Positions 3,898 to 41,816 of a stretch of DNA of 64,000 nt are shown in pieces. The position numbers and the translations under genes are program-made. Where the stretch lies: the NCBI GenBank assembly GCA_026391695.1, contig JAPLDP010000036.1, forward strand, positions 11,631-75,630. Reading direction: 5' to 3'. How positions within the stretch are numbered: position 1 is the first letter of the stretch; each line of letters begins with the position of its first letter. Origin of the DNA: Bacteroidota bacterium. Its GTDB lineage: Bacteria; Bacteroidota; Bacteroidia; Bacteroidales; JAGONC01. Under the pieces are notes generated by a model that ran no database searches, was not told where the DNA came from, and saw only the letters and a list, made by a program, of their open reading frames with translations.

Positions 3898-6800
3898 TTA
3901 CTCGAGTATTATCTTTTTCAAATATACGACATTGTCGCTGATAAGTTTAAACATGTATATCCCTTTATGGAAAAATGAAAGATCAAGTTGCCCAGTATAG
4001 CCGTCAGCACCATTGGACCTGATGTTTTTCCTCAGGATGATCTGCCCGTGCATATCGAATATCTCCATTTCAGCGGTGGATGTCAGTCCCTTTATAATTA
4101 CATGTATTTGGTCATGTGTTGGATTTGGAAAAATCTTTATATCAATACTATGATCAGTTGTCGGAATTCCGGTACATTCGGAGAAACTAAATAACACCGT
4201 CAGGGAATCGGAAGCATGACACCCGGTTTCCGGATTTGACACTATTACCCAGTAGGTCTGAATGACAAGTCCAATACCGGTTGTTCTGACCTGCAATGTT
4301 TGTCCCCATGACAGATCAGACCATTCATACTGGAATCCGGGATTACCGGCATCCAGAATAAGCGTATCATATACACATACGGCAATAGTATCTTCGCCAA
4401 TTATTGTTGAACCTTGCGGTATAAGATTTATTGCAGGTAAAGGATTTACAGTGACAGTGACCGTATTGCTGCTCTCGTTATAGCCGTCAGAAACTTCAAT
4501 GGTGTAAACAGTAGTTGTATCAGGATTGACATACATGCTGACATTATTAGAGATAACTGAGCCGGTATTATCTTTCCAGGTATATTGATAAGTTTCGGCA
4601 CCGCCGAATGCCAGAGCCTGTAACATGGTTTCGACTCCCTGGCATATTTCCGGGGATTCAGCATAGGCATTCACTCCAAGAGGGCCTCCGACGACATTGA
4701 TAGTGATCTGGTCCTCATCCCAGCAACCGTATTGATCTGTCGCTTTCAGCGTAAATATAGTTGATTCCGTCATATTGATGGTCTGGGGATTTTGGATAAA
4801 GGAATTAACAAGCATATCAACAGGTTCCCAATTCCAGAAATAGAATCCCGATCCTCCTGTTGCATATCCGCTTAGTACGGTCCATGTACCATAAGGAATT
4901 GTTTTATCCTCACCGGCACTGGCAGAAGGCAAAGCATGCACAGTGACGTCGACGCTGCCATTGACCGTGACATTACCATCATTAACCGCCAGGGTATACG
5001 TCGTGGATTGTGTGGGGTAGGCCACAGTATTCAAGATGCTGGCATTAAATCCTGGCGGATTGGATGTCCACTGATACGTATAGTTTTCCGTACCTCCGGC
5101 TACAACGCCGCTTAACTGAACCGCTCCTCCGGTATTACACATGGCATCAGGATCAGCTGTGACACTGACAATCTGAAGAGGGCCGCCATATACTTCCACG
5201 GTCACAGATGCTTCATCATGGCAGCCGGTTGACTGATCAGTAACAAGTACCGTAAACACGACAGTATATTCGAGATGCACAGTCTCCGGATCAGCAGAAG
5301 AAGAGTTTACAACCTTATCTGCCGGCGACCACTGATAAGAAAATGGTCCTATCCCGCCTGTGGTAACTGCATGAAGTGTTGTCCATGATCCATAAGGAAT
5401 GCTTATGAGGTCAGCACTGGCCTGGGCCCCAGGTAAAGGCTTGACAGTTAAGGAAGTACTGCCTTGTGACGAATTATATCCATCATTGACAGTAACAGTA
5501 TACAGAGTGTTCATAGCAGGTGTTACAACAGGATTTGCATCGGTGGATGTGAATCCCGGCGGATTTGATACCCATGAATAGGTATAGACACCGGCACCTC
5601 CCGATGCCAGGGCATGGAGTTGTGTGCTCTCCCCAAGACATAGCTGGTCATTATCGGCAGATACATTTACTCCCAATGGTCCGCCGACTACCGTGACGAT
5701 AATGTCATCAGTATCTTCACAACCATTGATATCTGTGACTTTAAGGGTAAAAATGGTAGTTATATCCAGGTTAATAGTCTGAGGATCTTCAATATCCGGA
5801 TTGACAAGCAAATTGGCAGGCTCCCAGTGCCAAGTATAACCACTGGTACCTCCGGTGGCAGAACCATCAAGTGTGGTCCATGTTCCATAGGGTATCGATT
5901 TATCCGGGCCTGCGTTAGCAACAGGCACAGGATTAATTCCGATTTCCCCGGCACCTGCCATGGTATCGGAGCATATCGTATTAAAAGCAAGAACGGTGTA
6001 CCAGCCCGGCATAGTCACCCCATTAAAACTCACGGGATCACCTGTTCCCTCTAAATCTATACCTGTCGGTAACGAGTTCAACAGCAGTTCGTACGTCACA
6101 CCTGCTTCTGAATCGTTCAGGGTGATAGAAGTGCCGTTAACATTCTCACAATAATAACCTCCGCCGCTTACATTGAATACCTGTGGTACAATAGCAATGT
6201 CTATTTCTGCCGAACCCAGCATGTCGTTATTTCCGCAATTCCCTGACGCTTTCACAGTATATACTCCTGCTTCGGTCTGTAGTCCGAAATTTATTCCTCC
6301 GATGCCTGTACCCATAACAATCTGGCCCGTTGAGGAACCATTGTGGTACAATTCATAACCTACAAAAGCTTCAGATTGATCTTCAACAAGGTATATTTCA
6401 GGACCGGTACTACCTTCACAATAGGATCCGCCCCCTCCGACAGTATATTGAATGGGAAGACTCTGTACTGTGACAAGTCTGCTGATCGAATTACTGCAAC
6501 CGCCGGCATCGGTATATTCGTATGTGACCGAATAAGGCCCACCCGGACCGGTAGCACCCGGATTAAAAACTGCAGAATTATTGCCAAGGTCCGTTATCCC
6601 GGGACCAGTAAAAGAACTATTTCCCGTTTCAGGATAATGGTTGCCATAAATGGTATCGGGCTGCTCATTTTCACACCAGAATGGATGCAGGCCATCAAAA
6701 TCAACAACAGGAAGTCCCGACTGCAGTTCAAAAGTCACAGGGGAGGATAGAGCATTGTTCTCGCATAAATCGGTAATCACACCAATAACCGTAATAATAT

Positions 6801-17800: not shown

Positions 17801-19072
17801 CTACGAATTTCTTTCCATAATTTTTTTCACTTCCGATCTCACGAAAAGATAGTCTTCCCGGCTGATCAAAAAATCTTTTATTTCTGCACCACTCCTCCTG
17901 ATAAAAACAATCAGAAGATAGGCCATGTTCATAATGTAAGATACGGAAGCTGTAAGGCCGGCTGCTATCAATCCATACCTTGGGATAAAGACCAGTCCCA
18001 GTACCAGTGTAAATACAAGCCCTATGGCTGAGCCAATCATATTGTGCTGTGGTTTTCCCGTGCCGGAAAAAAAATGGCTCACCAGCATTGACACTGCCGT
18101 AGCCAATATTCCCAATGCGAGGGTTAGCATAATCAACCTAATATTCTCAAAATCCTGTCCGAAAATGGCTCCATACAGTCTTTCGGGTAAGGCCAGCAAA
18201 CCGGCCAGCACAATTGCTGTAAGCAGGAATGTGAACTTGAGTAACCGTAGGGTGACATTCCTGGCATAGATCATATCATTCACATTTGATATGCGGGCAT
18301 ATTGCACTGTGGCCACACTTTTGCCGATAAGCCATACGCCTTCGGAAATCTGCACACCTGCACCGTATAGTCCCAATGCTGCCCGCCCGCTGAACGCCTC
18401 AATGATATAGTAACTTAACCTGTAATTAAAAAATTGAATGATATTGGCAATCTGAAGGAACTTCCCATATTTAAAAAGCTCACCGATAACGTACCTCACT
18501 CCCGAAAGGCTTGTAACTGTGACATACTTCCTGATTGCTGCAAGACTCAGCAGAAAGACAAGGACATATCCTGAAAATAGGGCATAAACATAAGCTATCA
18601 CCTCAACACGATGCCAGACATAGATGAGCAATATTAAAACCAGAGTTGTCACCACCTGCTGGATCACTGTAAGGGTATTATATAAGCTTATCTTCTCCTT
18701 TCCGATAAGGATAGTCAGGTTAATCATTGCGAATGACTGAAACAATGACATGACCAAAATGTACCATGTGTATTCTGCAGGGATAAGGTTAAAGATTTGC
18801 AGGATGATGGCGCCGAACACCGAGGTGATAAGAGCCCAGATATAAGAGGGGACAAAGAGCTTGTAGAGGTCATGTCTGGGAACGAGATAAACGAGGGCGC
18901 CACCACCTATGAAATTGCTGATCATGAGCAGCACGGTAATCCCCAGAACCACCAATGTGATAGTTCCGAGTCCGACCTGGCCAAGATTATTCGTGTTAAT
19001 CACCAAGATGACCAGCGATAGGACCGCGTTGAACATACGCGATGCAGCGGTGCCTAAAATATTGCGGAACAT
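17801..19072 (-). CDS. wzx: Polysaccharide flippase (Wzx-like, MOP superfamily)
   Basis: 423-aa polytopic membrane ORF of ~12 hydrophobic segments. Its size and position in a glycosyltransferase locus are typical of O-unit/EPS flippases. Confidence 0.75.
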   Translation of the reverse strand: MFRNILGTAASRMFNAVLSLVILVINTNNLGQVGLGTITLVVLGITVLLMISNFIGGGALVYLVPRHDLYKLFVPSYIWALITSVFGAIILQIFNLIPAEYTWYILVMSLFQSFAMINLTILIGKEKISLYNTLTVIQQVVTTLVLILLIYVWHRVEVIAYVYALFSGYVLVFLLSLAAIRKYVTVTSLSGVRYVIGELFKYGKFLQIANIIQFFNYRLSYYIIEAFSGRAALGLYGAGVQISEGVWLIGKSVATVQYARISNVNDMIYARNVTLRLLKFTFLLTAIVLAGLLALPERLYGAIFGQDFENIRLIMLTLALGILATAVSMLVSHFFSGTGKPQHNMIGSAIGLVFTLVLGLVFIPRYGLIAAGLTASVSYIMNMAYLLIVFIRRSGAEIKDFLISREDYLFVRSEVKKIMERNS

Positions 19073-19077
19073 ATAAT

Positions 19078-19133
19078 CAGGTTACAGGTTGCAGGTTACA
19101 AGTTAAAGCTTCAAGCTTCAAACTACAGGTTAA
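19078..19133. repeat. Array of eight heptanucleotide units filling the flippase / upstream-gene spacer
   Basis: CAGGTTA CAGGTTG CAGGTTA CAAGTTA AAGCTTC AAGCTTC AAACTAC AGGTTAA. The array overlaps the last codons and stop of 19123..20832 and ends 6 nt before the flippase start codon. Confidence 0.7.
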
Positions 19134-20832
19134 AGATTCTTCTTAGTTTCAATGTGATTTTATTCCATAAGTGATACCTATCAAATATAAATCTTTTGCC
19201 GTCAAAAATGATATATTCTCCTGAAAGAGAAATGGTGTGTAATCCTTTATGATATTTCATTCTTTTTTCCTTATCCTTTACAAATTCAATGTATTTCACA
19301 GTTTCCTCTTCAAAGTGCCAGGGATCAAGTTTAATGATTTTATTGACGGCCACGCGTTCGCCGTATGTCACAGAACAATCCTGAGCAGGCCTGTGCAATT
19401 CGCCGGCTATGATAAATGGTGCGCCGGCCGGACGCGCTGAACAAACGTCGGTTTTCAGCGGATTATTGTTATGTGGCTTGTATTCTCCGAAGAGATCATT
19501 TGCATAATAAGCAAATAAATGCGTATCCGACAGGTGTTTTCTTGTAAAAAAGAGCCACCATAATTCCTGGTATTGAAATAGTGTCGGATCCACAGCATCT
19601 ATGCCTTCAAGGATTGTCTTGAAATGCACGAAAAGATCAGTTTCAGAGTCTAACCTGTAAACATTAACCTGCCTGCTGCCGGCCGACTCGGGTATGCAAT
19701 AGACTTGGCCTCCGCTTTCCAGAATATATGGGTAAGACAGGTGCCATGGCTCTTTTATCGCCGGTCTCCTGGATGAAACAACCCGGGTGACAGGATCAAA
19801 GCTGAAACGTGTAATGATTCCTTTGGACAACTTATAGTCATACTCTTCGCACATGATTTCCAACTGACCATTTCTTTCAAAAACAAAAGGATCCGCAAGG
19901 TACGTATGTCGCACAGGAATCGGAAGAAAGCCGCCATTCACCAGACCGTCCTGCTCAAAAAGCTGCTGCCGATCCATTCTAACGATGCTGATATTCCATT
20001 CCTCCGCTTTAAAAAGATCATCACAATAAAATGTTATCTTGTTGCGGAATCGTTTATAAAAGAATTTAAGCATCGTCCAGTTATGGGGAGTGCGATATAT
20101 TCTGGCTGCAGAAGAGCTCTCTTCACGGAACAGGCTGTCATAGCCGCAGTAAATGATGTCATTGGCAACCTGCAATGGCCATGGTGCTGTTTCGAAAAAC
20201 AGACGGTCTATATGAGCAGCATAGGAATGAAAAAGGGTCTTAAAAAAACCTTTCTTCAAGATGATCCCGGCATCCAGCCTGTTGGTAAGACGCTGAAGAA
20301 CAGCTCCATTAACAGGGTCGTCGAAACAGATTTCCCAGAATCCCGGAGGACCGCCACGATATTTCTGCTCATCGTCATGATGAAAAGACCAAACACCATA
20401 TTCGGCCGCATCAAGTATATCTCCCCGTATGATATTAAAACCAAATCTCAGGATGAAATCCAGTTCATATTCACGTATGACACTAATATCGGATGGAAAG
20501 AAATACTGCGAAAAATTTTCATTAATGGTTTGGCAGCGAATGACGGGAATGTTGCGTAATTCGTCAGCCAAGGACACCATTTTTTTTGCTTCAGGCCGGA
20601 AGCAATGATGCATATATTGGCGGTATAACAAATGAGAATAGGGGTAAGTTTGTAGCCTATCGAAAAGAGCGGATTTATCAGGGCTATGATCATCCATGAT
20701 AAGCAACATTGGCTGATGCCCTCCAGATATCAGATCCCTGATAGCCTGTGCTTGCCAGGCCTGGAATGTATAATCCCGGCACATGATGCCAAACTTCAAA
20801 TATTTTTTGCCTGAAGATGAAATATTATTCAT
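19123..20832 (-). CDS. Two-domain polysaccharide-locus protein: formyltransferase-like N-terminal fold fused to a propeller-like C-terminal domain of unknown function
   Basis: The ORF track starts at a GTG (20862); I prefer the ATG at 20832 (MNNISSSGKKYL...). The N-terminal half has a formyltransferase-like signature (...VWSFHHDDEQKYRGGPPGFWEI..DDPVNGAVLQRLTNRLDAGIIL). The C-terminal half is rich in beta-strand repeats. The product name is tentative. Confidence 0.55.
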   Translation of the reverse strand: MNNISSSGKKYLKFGIMCRDYTFQAWQAQAIRDLISGGHQPMLLIMDDHSPDKSALFDRLQTYPYSHLLYRQYMHHCFRPEAKKMVSLADELRNIPVIRCQTINENFSQYFFPSDISVIREYELDFILRFGFNIIRGDILDAAEYGVWSFHHDDEQKYRGGPPGFWEICFDDPVNGAVLQRLTNRLDAGIILKKGFFKTLFHSYAAHIDRLFFETAPWPLQVANDIIYCGYDSLFREESSSAARIYRTPHNWTMLKFFYKRFRNKITFYCDDLFKAEEWNISIVRMDRQQLFEQDGLVNGGFLPIPVRHTYLADPFVFERNGQLEIMCEEYDYKLSKGIITRFSFDPVTRVVSSRRPAIKEPWHLSYPYILESGGQVYCIPESAGSRQVNVYRLDSETDLFVHFKTILEGIDAVDPTLFQYQELWWLFFTRKHLSDTHLFAYYANDLFGEYKPHNNNPLKTDVCSARPAGAPFIIAGELHRPAQDCSVTYGERVAVNKIIKLDPWHFEEETVKYIEFVKDKEKRMKYHKGLHTISLSGEYIIFDGKRFIFDRYHLWNKITLKLRRIFNL

Positions 20833-20858
20833 TTTAACACCACTGGCGGTTAAAAAAA

Positions 20859-22205
20859 TCACCTGCTATATATCGCAGCATCATAGAGCTCATTGAGTAG
20901 CTTGCTTACTGCTTTTGTACCATAATTAAGTACTGTGTATTCCCTGATCTTTTCCTTGTCAAATTCGTTATGATGCACAAGCATCCATTCTATTTTTCTG
21001 AGGAGGTCATCCTCATCACCGGCCCTGACCAGCAAACCTCTGGTAGTATTAACAACCTCGGGAATCCCTCCCACTGCAGTGGCTACAACCGGTACGCCAC
21101 AGGCAAATGCCTCGTTGATCACGACTGGCAGGTTCTCATAGTTACTGAACAGAACCATAAAATCCGATGTGCTGATAGCTTCTACGAGATCCTTCCCTTC
21201 CAGTAGTCCCGTAAAATGCACCCACTCGGTCAATCCCAAATCCTCTGATCTTTTGATCATCCATTCCCGATCTATCCCTTCCCCGACCAGGTAGCATTCC
21301 CAGTCATCCCGTAGCACTGACAACCGTTTTAATACATTTAAAATGCCGGAAATATTCTTCGACCTATCCTCAAAACAAGACACATGAACCATTCTCTTTT
21401 TATGCAAGGCCCCAGGTTGCATTCCGCTATTCACCTTAAAAGGCAGGAACTTATCCGTATCCACCACATTGGGCAATATCCTGAAATTTTTATTGTACAA
21501 ATGGTATCGGAGCATAGCATTTTCAAGGTCCACAGTGGGTGTGGTCACAGCGGAAGCGTACCTGACCACAATTTTCGTCATCAGTTTTCTGAAACATCCC
21601 TTGTATGTATTGACTGATGGCAAGTATCGCGACCAGTGCTCGGTAATGATGTAAGGTGTTGATTTACAAATTTTGAGATACAGGGCAAATATACCTAACC
21701 GGGTGAGCACATGAACATGAATGACATCCGGTTTCCCGCGCTGTTTCAGGATATGCCGGTAGCCGATCAGATTTGCCTTTATGAACCGGCATGTATTAAT
21801 GAACTTGCTATAGGTATTACAGTTGGCAGTTGACAGTTGGCAGTTGACATTGCCATTGACCGTTAGCCGACTGCCGATCCCGACATGCGTCGGGACGTCA
21901 CTTCGTTCCGCTGCCGACTGCCGACCGTTGACTGCCGACTGCCAATCGTCGACTGCCAACTGCCGACTGCCGACTAAATAATACACCCTCACTGTAAAAA
22001 TACCCTGATCCTCAATCTCTTCAATCTCAAATTTTTTATCCATGCTCTCTGAAGCCTGAACATATAACACCGAAACCTTGCTAAACTGCGCCGCTACCAA
22101 AGCATGATTCCGCACAAATAATCCCCATAAAGGATCATACCTATGAGGGTACCAGCGGGGAAGAAAGAGGATGTGGTGCGGAGATTGCGGGGTCACCATG
22201 ATCAA
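20859..22205 (-). CDS. Glycosyltransferase family 4 (GT-B fold) carrying an in-frame ~50-aa insertion encoded by a palindromic heptamer element
   Basis: 448-aa ORF. The C-terminal half has the classic GT4 motif (FSNYENLPVVINEAFACGVPVVATAVGGIPEVV). The N-terminal domain is interrupted at nt 21820-21974. Confidence 0.8.
   Translation of the reverse strand: MIMVTPQSPHHILFLPRWYPHRYDPLWGLFVRNHALVAAQFSKVSVLYVQASESMDKKFEIEEIEDQGIFTVRVYYLVGSRQLAVDDWQSAVNGRQSAAERSDVPTHVGIGSRLTVNGNVNCQLSTANCNTYSKFINTCRFIKANLIGYRHILKQRGKPDVIHVHVLTRLGIFALYLKICKSTPYIITEHWSRYLPSVNTYKGCFRKLMTKIVVRYASAVTTPTVDLENAMLRYHLYNKNFRILPNVVDTDKFLPFKVNSGMQPGALHKKRMVHVSCFEDRSKNISGILNVLKRLSVLRDDWECYLVGEGIDREWMIKRSEDLGLTEWVHFTGLLEGKDLVEAISTSDFMVLFSNYENLPVVINEAFACGVPVVATAVGGIPEVVNTTRGLLVRAGDEDDLLRKIEWMLVHHNEFDKEKIREYTVLNYGTKAVSKLLNELYDAAIYSR
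21820..21974. repeat. Intragenic palindromic element: inverted arms of heptamer units around a central perfect hairpin
   Basis: The left arm is CAGTTGG CAGTTGA CAGTTGG CAGTTGA followed by degenerate units. The centre is CCCGAC-ATGC-GTCGGG (21879-21894). The right arm (21911-21973) is CTGCCGA x2, CCGTTGA, CTGCCGA, CTGCCAA, TCGTCGA, CTGCCAA, CTGCCGA x2. The reverse complement of the right-arm unit (TCGGCAG) matches the left-arm register (TTGGCAG). Confidence 0.8.
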
Positions 22206-22369
22206 TTAGTCAATTTGAGAATTTGAAAATGAAATAATAAATATTTGGCAAATTTAAAGAAAGTTGTCATTTGCCGGAACAGGTATATGAATGAATCTGA
22301 AACTGAATGCACGGACATAAGTTGGTCGTTCATGAAAACTGCGTAATTTTATCCCTTTAATACTATACC

Positions 22370-22422
22370 ACCTCACCTCCTTCACCCCCTCTCCTGGAGA
22401 AGAGGGGGACGGGGGATGAGGT
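22370..22422. repeat. GC-rich imperfect palindrome (REP-like hairpin) in the divergent intergenic region
   Basis: ACCTCACCTCCTTCACCCCCTCTCC-TGGA-GAAGAGGGGGACGGGGGATGAGGT. The core is a perfect 8-bp stem, CCCCCTCT (22385-22392) paired with AGAGGGGG (22401-22408). Confidence 0.6.
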
Positions 22423-22439
22423 AACTAAAAAACCATTCA

Positions 22440-23531
22440 ATGAACACCTGTAAACTCTGCCTGCTGAACGAAAACATCGATGGAGTGATCATTAATGCTG
22501 ACGGCATTTGCAATTACTGTTCGGGATATAGTCTCTACAAGCCGTATGGGGAGGAACAACTACTGAAGATATTTAAAAAAGCCGGCAGGAAACGCCGTCC
22601 GTACGATGCGCTGGTGCCGCTCAGCGGCGGAAAGGACAGCACCTATGTTCTTTACCTGGCGGTGAAAAAATACAAACTCAGGGTGCTGGCCTATACCCTT
22701 GACAATGGATTCATGAGTGAACTCGCCCTGAGGAATATTGAAAGTGCCTTAAAATCCTGCGGTGTCGATCATATCTGGTTCAGATATGATAATAACCTGA
22801 TTTATAAACTCTATCGCACAGCGCTGCTTCATTCGGGTGAAATATGCGGAATTTGCGGGACAGCCATTGAACGCACCATGCTGAAAGTATCGGAAGCCTT
22901 TCATACACCTCTTATCCTTCTCGGGCATTCACCTGTGGAGGATAATTCTTTCACCACAGAAGACCTGTATGATCAGACCAGAATTAAGGCCATTATGAAA
23001 CAAAATCCCGGCATATCGGCATCAGATATGCATCGTTTTCTGATCTATCCAAACCTCAACTTCATTTCAACTTTTATCCTGACAAAGCTGGGACGCTTTG
23101 GTAAGAAGATCAATCCACTCTATTTCATTGACATTCCCAGCGACAGGGAGATTTCGGAGATCCTGGTCAGGGAAATGGGATGGAACGATAGCAGTGCCTC
23201 GGAATATACACGGCACTTTGACTGCATTGCTGAGCCTTTTACAAATCATATCCGTGAAAAGCGATTCGGCTATTCACGTCGAATATGCCAGCTCAGCAAC
23301 ATGATCCGCCTCGGCGAACTGACACGCGAAAAAGCCGCGGAGATATTAAGCACTGATCAAAAAAATCCTGATCCGCCGTTTCTGGATGTCATCATGCAAA
23401 GGATGAACCTGTCGCAGGCAGATATTCAACAAGCCGTGGCAGTTGAAAGGAATGTATTCCAAGATGACGTGTCAGCAGCCAACCGGATTTTTGCCCTTGC
23501 GCGAAAAATCCTGAAAAGGCATAAACACTGA
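22440..23531 (+). CDS. N-acetyl sugar amidotransferase (WbpG-like PP-loop ATPase)
   Basis: 363-aa ORF with an N-terminal Cys cluster (CKLC...CNYC) followed by the PP-loop SGGKDS. This architecture is typical of the LPS/capsule amidotransferase family. Confidence 0.75.
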   Translation: MNTCKLCLLNENIDGVIINADGICNYCSGYSLYKPYGEEQLLKIFKKAGRKRRPYDALVPLSGGKDSTYVLYLAVKKYKLRVLAYTLDNGFMSELALRNIESALKSCGVDHIWFRYDNNLIYKLYRTALLHSGEICGICGTAIERTMLKVSEAFHTPLILLGHSPVEDNSFTTEDLYDQTRIKAIMKQNPGISASDMHRFLIYPNLNFISTFILTKLGRFGKKINPLYFIDIPSDREISEILVREMGWNDSSASEYTRHFDCIAEPFTNHIREKRFGYSRRICQLSNMIRLGELTREKAAEILSTDQKNPDPPFLDVIMQRMNLSQADIQQAVAVERNVFQDDVSAANRIFALARKILKRHKH

Positions 23532-23577
23532 GATTGAAATTACAATAAGTGTTGGTTTGTACTTACGGATGATTTGA

Positions 23578-25602
23578 TCACATTACCACAATCTTACCGA
23601 TGGCCGATGGCTGATGGCCGATGGCCGATATGCGATAGAAATAGATGCCGGATGGAAGGTCTTTTGCATTCCAGGTGACCTGATGGTCGCCTACAGACAG
23701 CAATTCATCCAGAATGGTTGCTATAACTTGTCCCAAGTTATTTATTACTTGGAGATTTACTTTTAAAGGCTCTTGTAACTGGATACTGAATGTGGTGTGT
23801 CCTGTAAAGGGATTGGGATAAACAGAACAGTAGCTTATGTCCATATTATCTGTTAATCCGACGCCACATGCTTCTTCAACCTCCTCCCGGCTGTTGCAAC
23901 CGGTTGCATTACCAGTGATAGCAATGGTTCCATTGGGATTAGCCAGGTAATCACATATACTTTGAACTTCACAGGTAGATAAAGAACTGTCAAAACAGAT
24001 ACATAGATTGTCTATCGATCCGGCAAAAATGTTGTCCAGCCCCCCCAGGCTCGTAAGAACCATATTTAAGCGAATATTCAGATCTCCACCGATGGTGGTC
24101 AAACCTTCCATCCCCATCAGGCTATTAAGGGCAGTGTTGTATCGAATAGTAAGATGCCCCCCAATGGAACTCAGATTTTCCAGCCCCATCAGGTTGGTCA
24201 ATGTATAGTTCCCTTCAATATTAAGGTATCCCCCGATGGAATTTAATCCTTCTATACCTGACAGGTCAGACAGTGCGTCGTTGTCGTTGATTTCAAAATC
24301 TTCCATGACGGAAGTCAACCCTCCAAGTCCTGACAGGCTTGTCAGGGCTTCATTGCTTCTAATATAAAGGTGTCCTTTTATGGAAGTCAAATGCTCTATA
24401 TTCGTCAAGCTGGTCAGTGCCTTGTTATATTCAATAGAAAGGTTTCCCCCGAGGGAAGTCAAGGCTTCCAGTCCCGTAAGACAAGTCAGAACATCGTTGT
24501 ATCCGATATAAAGGTTTCCTCCGATGGAAGTCAAAACCTCCAGTCCTGTCAGGCTGGTCAGTGTATTGTTCTCTTTAATACGAAGGTATCCCCCTATGGA
24601 ATGTAAACCTTCTAAACCAGTCAGGCTGATAAGGGCATCGTTGCCGATGATATCAAAACCTCCCATGATGGAAGTCAACCCTCCAAGTCCTGACAAGTAT
24701 CTCAGGGATTCATTGTATTCAATATAAAGGTCTCCTCCAAGGGAAGTCAAACTCTCCAGTCCGGTCAGGCTGGTCAGGTCATCGTTATAAACAATATAAA
24801 GATATCCTCCGATGAAAATTAAACCCTCCAGTCCAGTCAGGCTGGTTAGTATATTGTTCCCGTCAATATGGAGGTATCCCCCGACGGAAGTCAAATTCTC
24901 CAGTCCTGTCAGGTTAGTAAGTGCGTCGTTGCAAACGATTTCAAAATCATCCGTGATGGAAGTCAACCCGTCAAGTCCTGACAGACTTGTCAGGGCGTTG
25001 TTGCGTTCTATAGAAAGCCAGCCACCCATAGAAGTTAAATTCTCCAGTCCTGTCAGGCTGGTGAGAGCGTCATTGAATAAAACAGAGAGGCCTCCCCCAA
25101 TAGTTGTCAATCCCTTCAGTCCCGTCAGGCTGGTCAGGTTATTGTTTCCTTCAATATAAAAAACTCCTCCGATAGACGTCAAACCTTCTAATCCAATCAT
25201 ACTGGTCAGACTATAGTTTTGAGAAATAAAAATACTTCCCCCGATGGAAGTCACATTGTCCAGTCCCGTCAGACTAATCAGGCCGTTATTAAATTCAATA
25301 TAAAGGTCTCCCCCGATGGAAGTTACATTATCCAGTCCTGTCAGATTTATCAGGATGTTATTGTAATCAATATAAAGAATTCCCCCAATAGAAGTCAAAA
25401 CACTTAATCCGCTTAAATTGGTAATATCGTCTCCCGATATACTCACATCCCCCTCAATTTCCGTACAGCCGGGATAATTGGTCTGGAAATTATCAATTTC
25501 GGATTGGGTTGTAAATGTGATGCCTTCCGGCAGGCAGGATTGCGGTGACGCCGTTATCTGAATGAATATCAAAATAATAAATACAAGAGATGATCTTTTC
25601 AT
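23578..25602 (-). CDS. Leucine-rich-repeat surface protein with T9SS type A sorting domain
   Basis: 674-aa ORF with a signal peptide and ~20 tandem 24-aa units (LTSLTGLExLTSIGGxLxIxxNxx). The CTD is VYPNPFTGHTTFSIQL...GIYFYRISAIGHQPSAIGKIVVM. Confidence 0.85.
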   Translation of the reverse strand: MKRSSLVFIILIFIQITASPQSCLPEGITFTTQSEIDNFQTNYPGCTEIEGDVSISGDDITNLSGLSVLTSIGGILYIDYNNILINLTGLDNVTSIGGDLYIEFNNGLISLTGLDNVTSIGGSIFISQNYSLTSMIGLEGLTSIGGVFYIEGNNNLTSLTGLKGLTTIGGGLSVLFNDALTSLTGLENLTSMGGWLSIERNNALTSLSGLDGLTSITDDFEIVCNDALTNLTGLENLTSVGGYLHIDGNNILTSLTGLEGLIFIGGYLYIVYNDDLTSLTGLESLTSLGGDLYIEYNESLRYLSGLGGLTSIMGGFDIIGNDALISLTGLEGLHSIGGYLRIKENNTLTSLTGLEVLTSIGGNLYIGYNDVLTCLTGLEALTSLGGNLSIEYNKALTSLTNIEHLTSIKGHLYIRSNEALTSLSGLGGLTSVMEDFEINDNDALSDLSGIEGLNSIGGYLNIEGNYTLTNLMGLENLSSIGGHLTIRYNTALNSLMGMEGLTTIGGDLNIRLNMVLTSLGGLDNIFAGSIDNLCICFDSSLSTCEVQSICDYLANPNGTIAITGNATGCNSREEVEEACGVGLTDNMDISYCSVYPNPFTGHTTFSIQLQEPLKVNLQVINNLGQVIATILDELLSVGDHQVTWNAKDLPSGIYFYRISAIGHQPSAIGKIVVM
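23597..23638. repeat. Six heptanucleotide units inside the last 14 codons of the LRR/T9SS gene
   Basis: CCGATGG CCGATGG CTGATGG CCGATGG CCGATAT GCGATAG on the plus strand. This encodes ...RISAIGHQPSAIGK... of the CTD. Confidence 0.7.
23986..25425 (-). repeat. About 20 tandem 72-bp (24-aa) LRR units
   Basis: Counted from residue I60 to about residue 539 of the 674-aa product. Units 7, 11 and 16 are a distinct F(D/E)I variant. Confidence 0.8.
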
Positions 25603-41430: not shown

Positions 41431-41482
41431 CACTCAACATTTAATAGCTACAAGCTTCAAGCTACAAGATACAAGTTGAGTG
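41431..41482. repeat. Heptamer array (5 units) enclosed by a perfect 8-bp inverted repeat
   Basis: CACTCAAC ... GCTACAA GCTTCAA GCTACAA GATACAA ... GTTGAGTG. It shares the core CAAGCTTCAAGCT with the array at 19078-19133. Confidence 0.65.
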
Positions 41483-41816
41483 AAGCGCAGCTGAGCGAAA
41501 TCTGTTTAAAAACTCTATAAAGCGTGCACATGTGCAGGGTGGATTTATCTTTAAATCTTTATGCTGCTTTCGGGATAGGGAAAGCATTTGAATGTGGATT
41601 ACAATGGGCATAGTAATACACAACAGAAATCATAGCCTGAATGCGATGTATCTGGAATCCCCCAAACATACAGATTAATGGCCCGTAAGTTTTGTCAGAT
41701 GCCTGGTATTAGAATCTTAACCGGGGAAGTGGGCTGATATTAATGACAGGAGGAAATTAGTATTCAGCAGGCAGCAGGCATATAATACCTATTGTCGATT
41801 GCCCACTGATGACTGA

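Follow-up and report, generated by a model that had tools for sequence, protein, structure and literature searches.

Classical short tandemly repeated repetitive (STRR) sequences with the units CCCCAGT, TTGGTCA and CAACAGT are a feature of heterocystous cyanobacteria. Arrays of 7-nt units have long been noted, and left unexplained, in cyanobacterial and Beggiatoaceae genomes and in some genomes of the Bacteroidetes (PMC4679880, PMC4692102), and both of these papers cite Mrazek 2007 for 'long simple sequence repeats' with units of 7 nt. Heptamers are over-represented among long simple sequence repeats (SSRs), and next to the classical cyanobacterial heptanucleotides arrays of GGGAATC/GGGGAYT have been described that are sometimes arranged as inverted pairs (PMC4692102). 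Arrays of TAACTGA and other heptamers are found in Beggiatoaceae, Cyanobacteria, Thiocystis and five Bacteroidetes, where insertions and deletions occur in 7-nt steps, occasional sets lie inside open reading frames (ORFs) and the mechanism was reported as not known (MacGregor 2015, PMC4679880). Here we analyse a composite of such arrays that is translated in frame as part of a GT4 glycosyltransferase. It lies in a stretch of 64,000 nt (the window; contig JAPLDP010000036.1) from a metagenome-assembled genome (MAG) of a Bacteroidota bacterium. Positions are window coordinates throughout, and L and P numbers denote fetched genomic loci and database proteins, respectively.

Repetitive extragenic palindromes (REP) and bacterial interspersed mosaic elements (BIME) are imperfect extragenic palindromes of about 20–40 nt which are present in many copies and associated with RAYT transposases. 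Rickettsia palindromic elements (RPEs) sit in frame in protein-coding genes that are unrelated to each other, at sites which the fold of the protein can accommodate (PMC10969869), and intragenic heptanucleotide tracts of 8–38 units in H. influenzae are consistent with phase variation (PMC2651432). Heptanucleotide arrays, sometimes inverted or inside ORFs, and in-frame palindromic elements in Rickettsia (PMC10969869) are known already; new are the composite architecture with a core common to two Bacteroidales loci, its long in-frame persistence in a GT4 gene and the turnover of arrays in GT4 loops. With a probability of roughly 0.6, we regard the element as a tolerated in-frame copy of a dispersed, STRR-like composite 7-nt repeat in a disordered loop.

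Results and Discussion

Anatomy of the element

The element, its host gene and the codons read through it are as follows, with array periods from Tandem Repeats Finder (TRF):

20859–22205, minus strand: host gene, GT4 (GT-B) glycosyltransferase, TTG start giving 448 codons, alternative ATG start at 22199 giving 446
21813–21977, minus strand: 55 codons L77–T131 (LVGSRQLAVDDWQSAVNGRQSAAERSDVPTHVGIGSRLTVNGNVNCQLSTANCNT), 165 nt, read through the element, predicted disordered loop insertion
21820–21975, inside the GT4 ORF: heptamer composite element of left arm, perfect hairpin and right arm (TRF and sequence)
21819–21849, no strand: left arm, (ACAGTTGGCAGTTG) x 2.2, i.e. CAGTTGG/CAGTTGA alternating, inverted complement of the right arm
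21850–21870, no strand: linker of degenerate heptamers, TTGCCATTGACCGTTAGCCGA, by alignment homologous to the linker GCATTTCCACGGA of locus L038
21871–21911, no strand: conserved core CTGCCGA-TCCCGAC-ATGC-GTCGGGA-CGTCACTTCGTTCCGC, including the perfect hairpin
21911–21975, no strand: right arm of CTGCCGA-type heptamers, TRF period 7 x 9.3 with 72% matches, (GTCGGCA)n on the coding strand
21976–21989, no strand: right flank TAAATAATACACCC, minus-strand codons R-V-Y-Y-L, 13/14 identical to the right flank in L038

With 3.9 and 9.3 copies according to TRF, both arms exceed the three head-to-tail 7-nt units that define a heptanucleotide tandem array. For the left arm TRF reports, at 21819–21864, a period of 7 (3.9 copies of CAGTTGG) as well as a period of 14 (3.4 copies of ACAGTTGGCAGTTG). 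The perfect hairpin CCCGAC-ATGC-GTCGGG occupies 21879–21894, and in its stem the unit variant GTCGGGA pairs with an inverted copy of itself. Read along the coding strand, nine GTCGGCA-type units are followed by 15 nt of unique sequence, the hairpin, five degenerate direct units and finally four inverted units. Left arm, central hairpin and right arm are found by TRF and in the sequence exactly where the original prediction had located them. It had also equated the reverse complement of the right-arm unit with the left-arm register; the arms are indeed inverted copies with 83–86% complementarity across 28–30 nt, but the units TTGGCAG and TCGGCAG differ at one base. The longest perfect runs comprise 2.0–2.4 units of 7 nt, or 2.2 copies of the 14-nt unit in the left arm, and a TA dinucleotide adjoins each end of the element.

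Allowing up to three mismatches, the 14-mer CTGCCGACTGCCGA has 17 matches in the window compared to 1.8 expected, and the excess lies wholly inside the element. The 23-mer CCCGACATGCGTCGGGACGTCAC (21879–21901) has no second match at the same tolerance in the 64-kb window, nor was a further copy of the arm or of the core found there, so the scan for additional copies that had been proposed was negative within the window and yielded one core-bearing copy in another genome, L038. A CRISPR repeat can be discarded, as the element has one hairpin only and lacks an array of spacers, and the same applies to REP and BIME given a length of 155 nt, an intragenic position, an array-based build and a single copy in the window.

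Host gene and protein

The host gene sits in a polysaccharide cluster, adjoining flippase-type and amidotransferase-type genes. Its product has two Rossmann-like domains, a C-terminal Glycos_transf_1 domain and an intact E-x7-E motif, as expected for a GT4 enzyme with GT-B fold. The Pfam matches are Glycos_transf_1 (7e-27) and Glyco_transf_4 (5e-12); a homology search gave 3,647 homologues, and no variation is seen in the E357-x7-E365 columns of the alignment.

The element is open in the used frame only, the remaining two frames of that strand containing two stops each. Compared to 15 GT4 homologues (49–54% identity, about 391 aa) the protein carries about 50 extra residues directly past the conserved VRVYY strand, and at the insertion point the alignment is unconserved in all 15 homologues. 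The proposed stop-free translation of about 50 aa between N-terminal GT4 segments is therefore real. An AlphaFold model built from the 15-homologue alignment (predicted local distance difference test (pLDDT) 80.5, predicted template modelling score (pTM) 0.79) is confident save for short terminal or loop segments and residues 81–129, which lie between strand 69–77 and helix 131–156 and have a pLDDT below 50, falling to 25–36. Structural matches of the model are BshA, MshA and glycogen synthase (target TM-scores 0.76–0.80). Structure prediction, which had been suggested as a check, thus places the insert in a predicted disordered loop of an otherwise confident GT-B model.

A protein search with the N-terminal 135 aa returned two uninformative N-terminal fragments, and one with the 55-aa insert peptide no candidates. 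Using HMMER and the insert peptide as query against 1.84 billion representative proteins we obtained five matches, none of which is a related insertion: four are tandem-repeat ORFs, two of these resembling translated CRISPR arrays, and the fifth is a repeat-containing surface-type protein. The peptide encoded by the hairpin, SDVPTHVGIG (21876–21902), resembles the recurring DVPTHVGVD of P0124 and P0125. Judged from three recurring motifs, P0124 and P0125 look like CRISPR arrays translated in three frames, and the likeness is one between GC-rich 7–8-bp stems with 4-nt loops only.

The deposited protein MCX6234044.1, encoded on a 101.9-kb contig, starts at M55 (394 aa), and homologues align from about residue 10 on, including the conserved LFLPRWYPxRYDP. 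From this alignment the public annotation of MCX6234044.1 appears to be N-terminally truncated (window region 22043–22205).

A second copy in another Bacteroidales genome

A BLAST search with the non-array centre of the element against all fetched DNA (1.3 Mb of loci) identified one real relative, L038 from an uncultured Bacteroidales MAG (CAZXWD010000105.1). This copy is located at 1465–1612 of the locus in an intergenic position immediately past the stop codon of a 189-aa ORF, and its parts follow the order seen in the window, with a left array (CTGTTGG)n, linker, (CTGCCGA)3, core and CTGCCGACTG. The linker reads GCATTTCCACGGA in L038 and CATTGCCATTGA in the window, the core TCCCGAT...ATGC-GGGACGTCGCTTCGCTCCG and TCCCGAC-ATGC-GTCGGGACGTCACTTCGTTCCG, respectively. 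Among the fetched loci the core 20-mer GGGACGTCRCTTCGYTCCGC and the 16-mer CTGCCGATCCCGAYAT are present only in these two copies, and the core has no match in IMG/VR. Because the L038 copy shares both the order of parts and the core, the composite qualifies as a dispersed repeat, of which there are at least two copies. The left array of L038 lacks complementarity to CTGCCGA. Both copies also have nearly the same right flank (13/14 identical, TAAATAAT(A)CACCC; 21976–21989 in the window, 1646–1659 in L038), which could be due to a target preference or similarity of target sites, to the flank being part of the element, or to chance.

The orthologue L002

The sole close relative in the protein database is P0002 (88%), a gene call starting mid-gene on contig L002 (JGI 3300047202), and the GT4 gene of L002 is 88.6% identical to the window gene at the DNA level. 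L002 retains five units, and their junction GTGTATTATTTA|GTCGGCAGTCGGCAGT is that of the window (28 nt identical). These units agree with the first five of the window, the ones nearest to the VYYL codons, in 30 of 35 nt (86%), which is about the gene-wide identity. As the units of L002 are orthologous and sit at the same junction, at least five units predate the split of the two lineages.

In L002 the five units are directly followed by downstream gene sequence, and core and inverted arm are absent. It is thereby 122 nt shorter than the window, which is not a multiple of 7, and is frameshifted: the N-terminal frame stops at ..VYYLVGSRQSAVGGGQSFCKIH* and the remaining protein follows in the +1 frame. 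The comparison with orthologues that had been proposed as a check has thus two outcomes, as the 15 more distant homologues lack the roughly 50 aa and the one close orthologue retains five units in a frameshifted gene. Between window and L002 the ratios of nonsynonymous to synonymous substitution rates (dN/dS) of the flanking gene halves are 0.11 and 0.21 (dS 0.31–0.55), indicating that both halves evolved under purifying selection.

A second gene of L002 is broken as well. At 4180–4270 (orthologue of window 22440–23531) the amidotransferase-type gene is split by a 19-nt non-repeat deletion, the protein being otherwise 91–92% identical. The rest of the contig aligns gap-free over 2.1 kb, so L002 is not simply full of indel errors. 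A difference that is no multiple of 7, the 19-nt frameshift in the neighbour and the gap-free rest together make decay the preferred explanation of L002 over a reversible 'off' state. A single 122-nt deletion from a window-like ancestor would explain L002 in one event. A metagenome scan with the GT4 protein returned 80 loci, all with at most 53% identity; it gave no new close orthologue and recovered neither L002 nor the source contig.

Period-7 arrays in the window and in other genomes

A periodicity scan of the 64-kb window gave six arrays with a period of 7, whereas periods 4–6 and 8–12 yielded none. Their units differ and include CAGGTTA, CCGATGG, AGCTACA and CTGCCGA, so the window shows an excess of period 7 with several different units rather than one repeated sequence. 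To place this into a wider context, one genome per GTDB species was scanned for (CTGCCRA)3, which gave at least 120 loci (L003–L122) compared to an estimated 2–6 by chance. The matches listed belong to Cyanobacteria (Microcoleus, Tychonema, Rivularia), Bacteroidota (Bacteroidales, Chitinophagaceae, Saprospiraceae, Rikenellaceae), Planctomycetota, Acidobacteriota, Chloroflexota, Poribacteria and Chromatiaceae (Thiocystis, Lamprocystis). The 120 listed loci (836 kb) contain 332 arrays at period 7 compared to 2–15 at periods 5, 6 and 8–11, and 436 kb of unselected GT4 neighbourhoods contain 19 compared to 0–9 at other periods. Altogether the arrays in the fetched loci fall into 138 unit classes. 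Among the matches listed, CAGT or ACTG is present in 24% of the arrays outside the selection by the search pattern, with about 5% expected. The STRR units CCCCAGT and CAACAGT also contain CAGT, as do these 24% of non-selected arrays.

An inverted 14-mer partner (at most two mismatches, within 200 nt) accompanies 98 of 334 arrays (29%), compared to 4–9 of 334 (about 2%) in controls taken from distant segments of the same loci. Compact cases of array, loop and inverted array are L076 (CAGTTGG/CTGCCAA units), L083, L020, L091 and L117. The inverted arrangement is typical for such arrays and not special to the window. A control with reversed or complemented arrays (44–47 of 360) was discarded, since it is inflated by symmetric units and neighbouring arrays.

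The element thus resembles the cyanobacterial STRR and long SSR in its tandem 7-nt units, the many unit sequences per genome and the over-representation of period 7; both kinds of arrays are mostly intergenic and sometimes genic, vary in length between relatives and include some inverted pairs (PMC4692102). In contrast to STRR, the window copy is a composite, has a non-repeat core in common with a second locus and is translated within an enzyme gene. It is not an STRR in the strict sense, its host being a Bacteroidota MAG and its units being different. With the TAACTGA repeats the arrays share the phylogenetic scatter, including Thiocystis, Microcoleus and Bacteroidetes, and the location of some sets in the periphery of ORFs (PMC4679880). 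They differ from these in the unit, the inverted arms and the mid-gene position, only one indirect repeat having been reported for the BOGUAY genome.

Arrays in other genes and in GT4 loops

Of 360 arrays in the fetched loci, 58 are embedded in an open frame that extends for 60 codons or more to either side. The identities of the array-carrying ORFs were assigned by eye from the translated sequences. Arrays of the (CAGTTGG/CTGCCAA) type are in frame in what we take to be an arginyl-tRNA synthetase-like ORF of a Flavisolibacter MAG (L075, 2930–2975; TEVGSWQSAVVSWKL), in a presumably LuxE-like ORF (L066, 4702–4742) and in a 992-aa protein that we assume to be of surface type (L084, 4055–4090). 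In L051 (2385–2434) (CAGTTGG)6 joins two ORFs, presumably KdsC-like and YhcH-like, into one open frame. Four high-GC 'genic' arrays (L021, L063, L091 and L103) were discarded as lying in spurious long ORFs.

GT4 genes carry further arrays. L134 (888–925), L142 (3105–3140), L147 and L148 are GT4 orthologues with 84–91% identity which bear differing arrays in one loop after ITVIYC, namely (CAACRGA)4 with period 7, (GACTACAA)4 with period 8 and (CCCACAGCTCAAAG)3 with period 14, all of them in frame. In L001 (375–480; the gene of P0018, a GT4 homologue) fifteen purine-rich RRACGGA-like heptamers are in frame in another loop, KAEDGTRKKEDGEWKTEDGRRKTENGKGRLEEGRERGNL. Overall, six of the seven examined array-bearing GT4 genes are in frame. 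On the basis of these comparisons GT4 loops are repeated hosts of short tandem arrays with fast turnover.

Predicted folding

The original prediction had proposed that the whole element could form a long hairpin or cruciform, and folding of a 176-nt region compared to 200 shuffles agrees with this for DNA and for RNA. As DNA the predicted fold has -36.1 kcal/mol compared to -22.0 kcal/mol in the shuffles (z -4.6); as RNA it reaches -80.2 kcal/mol for the plus strand (z -8.6) and -83.4 kcal/mol for the minus strand (z -7.3). In the outermost predicted stem GGTATT (21813–21818) pairs with the right flank at 21976–21989. An Rfam scan of 18500–24500 (E ≤ 1) gave a chance miRNA outside the element as its sole match, and between 21500 and 22500 there is one promoter-like and one terminator-like site compared to 2.0 and 0.7 in shuffled sequence, i.e. 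no excess. The fetched loci contain three other matches to the hairpin pattern TCCCGA-N(2-10)-TCGGGA, which is near the estimated chance number, so the pattern does not recur there.

Origin of the element and alternative explanations

Our preferred reading, a tolerated copy of a dispersed composite repeat, builds on findings demonstrated above, namely the anatomy of the element, its in-frame translation and position in a loop, the existence of a second copy and the array's age. The composite runs from an array A (CAGTTGG type) through the linker to an array B (CTGCCGA), the short GC hairpin core and again array B. Such arrays may originate and change by slippage in 7-nt steps, strand-switch copying would create inverted arrays, and recombination between arrays at separate loci possibly carried the core along. 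The first five units or more would have been at the site in the common ancestor with L002, which would later have lost the remainder by one frame-breaking 122-nt deletion. Persistence in the gene would be allowed by a stop-free frame, a length of 165 nt, which is a multiple of 3, and a predicted disordered loop where the homologues already vary, flanked in the N-terminal Rossmann-like domain by a beta-strand and a helix. To the enzyme the element would be useless, and as a side effect length changes that shift the frame would be likelier in this gene than in an ordinary one.

Several points weigh against this reading. Only two copies of the core are known from the loci compared, and these are from two different genomes. 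The L038 copy folds no better than its shuffles (z -0.89), so the strong hairpin of the window may be incidental or special to this copy; judged from the two predicted folds, the element family as a whole does not conserve the long hairpin. Instead of a deletion in L002, an expansion in the window lineage is possible. The recurrence of arrays in loops of polysaccharide GT4 enzymes could mean that selection favours them, and that the element has no function is a conclusion lying beyond sequence analysis, by which it cannot be shown.

Taking the alternatives in the order in which they hold up, an unlikely one is a transposase-mobilised miniature inverted-repeat transposable element (MITE), comparable to the RPEs, that entered the gene in the common ancestor and of which L002 subsequently lost a part. 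It would account for the L038 copy, which keeps the order of parts and the conserved core at an unrelated site between genes of another Bacteroidales genome, for inverted ends made of the complementary arms plus the outer GGTATT/AATAC pairing, for the TA dinucleotides at both ends and for the right flanks of the two copies, and RPEs provide a documented precedent for palindromic elements that insert in frame (PMC10969869). The element is, like an RPE, a palindrome of about 150 bp in frame in a protein gene. RPEs form near-identical dispersed families with a conserved peptide and are confined to Rickettsia, whereas simple 7-nt arrays and two copies of a core are found here; membership among them was rejected, the phylum being another one and the search of 1.84 billion representative proteins having found no related peptide. 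Against a MITE speak the lack of a further arm or core copy in the 64-kb window, the lack of a match in IMG/VR and the lack of a clear target-site duplication. The site in L002, which holds five units, does not provide an empty site for comparison. Its 'terminal inverted repeats' would be simple arrays of 138 unit classes from many phyla, which is unexpected from one spreading element, and the arms of L038 are not complementary. No transposase is linked to the element, for which no dedicated test was made. Thus, of the original idea of a MITE- or REP-like insertion tolerated in a surface loop, the tolerance holds, as the segment is absent in homologues, predicted to be disordered and flanked by gene halves with low dN/dS, and the L038 copy speaks for a dispersed element; a target-site duplication, a transposase link and a second window copy were not found. 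Because the arms are simple 7-nt arrays found across many phyla, 'STRR-like composite repeat' is the better description.

The other idea of the original prediction, a contingency locus in which slipped-strand gain or loss of 7-nt units toggles the GT4 enzyme and thereby varies the surface polysaccharide, we consider rather improbable. As in the contingency loci of Haemophilus, Neisseria and Campylobacter, the ORF of a surface-polysaccharide gene, here a glycosyltransferase of a polysaccharide cluster, contains repeats of a unit whose length is not divisible by 3, and one relative, the sole close orthologue, is out of frame at this position with both halves at a dN/dS of 0.11–0.21, which implies a recent or reversible break. 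Arrays with 7-, 8- and 14-nt units are also present in coding loops of other GT4 homologues, and the intragenic heptanucleotide repeats of H. influenzae provide a precedent consistent with phase variation (PMC2651432). However, a long near-perfect tract is lacking, since the degenerate arrays have perfect runs of at most 2.4 units compared to 8–38 in H. influenzae (PMC2651432), and the length difference to the orthologue does not consist of whole units. The frameshift of L002 had to be downgraded as support for phase variation because of the deletion in the neighbouring gene, which suggests decay of the locus, and because 122 is not a multiple of 7. The window and a Logan contig that was assembled independently and is on record for two samples have the same length, so that at the level of assemblies the only difference seen is the 122 nt of L002, and six of the seven array-bearing GT4 genes are in frame.

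A bolder combination of both ideas, which we regard as quite doubtful, would be a family of composite heptamer arrays that spreads across Bacteroidales without a classical transposase and, when residing in GT4 loops, acts as a low-rate frameshift switch of glycans. If this were true, the spread would be driven by gene conversion through array homology or by an unknown enzyme making CAGT-type 7-nt arrays across phyla, and environmental Bacteroidota would gain low-rate frameshift switching of their surface glycans.

Very unlikely is a functional nucleic-acid structure, either an mRNA hairpin of about -80 kcal/mol or a DNA cruciform, that regulates translation, mRNA stability or local DNA transactions. 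The predicted folding is very strong on both strands, and inverted array pairs are enriched more than 10-fold around such arrays in general, but there is no Rfam match, promoter- and terminator-like sites are not above shuffled sequence, pairing is not kept in L038, L002 is without core and inverted arm, and two copies preclude a covariation test.

Finally, an assembly artefact, i.e. a chimeric or collapsed repeat, would be conceivable because palindromic and tandem repeats are readily mis-assembled and the source is a MAG (MCX6234044.1), but it is essentially excluded by the same array at the same junction in L002 from another metagenome and by the independent Logan contig of SRR20698646 (recorded in 2 samples), which is 100% identical to the window across 5,535 nt including the element and therefore shows that the sequence is not the product of one assembler.

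The locus shows that 7-nt arrays can form a hairpin-capable composite whose conserved core is not confined to one locus, that a 55-codon repeat copy can stay in frame in an enzyme gene under purifying selection and that related GT4 genes carry differing short tandem arrays at the same loops. It offers a concrete test case for the origin of protein loop insertions from simple repeats and for on/off variation of surface polysaccharides beyond the classical pathogens. For annotation, QSAVGSR or ANCQLPT peptides in otherwise normal proteins are flags of DNA repeats and not of protein domains.

Further arrays in the window

Other period-7 arrays of the window are the following:

19077–19121: heptamer arrays filling the 50-nt spacer from the stop of ORF 19123–20862 (minus strand) to the start of the flippase-type gene
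23594–23637, in ORF 23578–25602 (minus strand): (CCGATGG) x 4.7, forming the C-terminal codons ..YRISAIGHQPSAIGKIVVM*
41446–41475, intergenic: AGCTACA/AGCTTCA x 4.3, having the motif AAGCTTCAAGCT in common with the array at 19106–19121
41765–41780, intergenic: CAGCAGG x 2.3

On the mRNA strand the array at 19077–19121 reads TAACCTG CAACCTG TAACCTG immediately before the ATG, and its position directly upstream of a start codon is shared with TAACTGA sets (PMC4679880). The counterpart of the 23594–23637 array in L002 has the same length of 33 nt and the diverged units CCGATGG CCGTTTG CCGATTG CCGATTG, so here the length is constant while the sequence drifts. The ORF containing this array (23578–25602, 674 aa) also has a 72-nt (24-codon) tandem repeat with about 15 copies and a higher-order period of 288 nt at 24310–25399, and the adjacent gene of L002 has a match to Por_Secre_tail of the type IX secretion system (T9SS).

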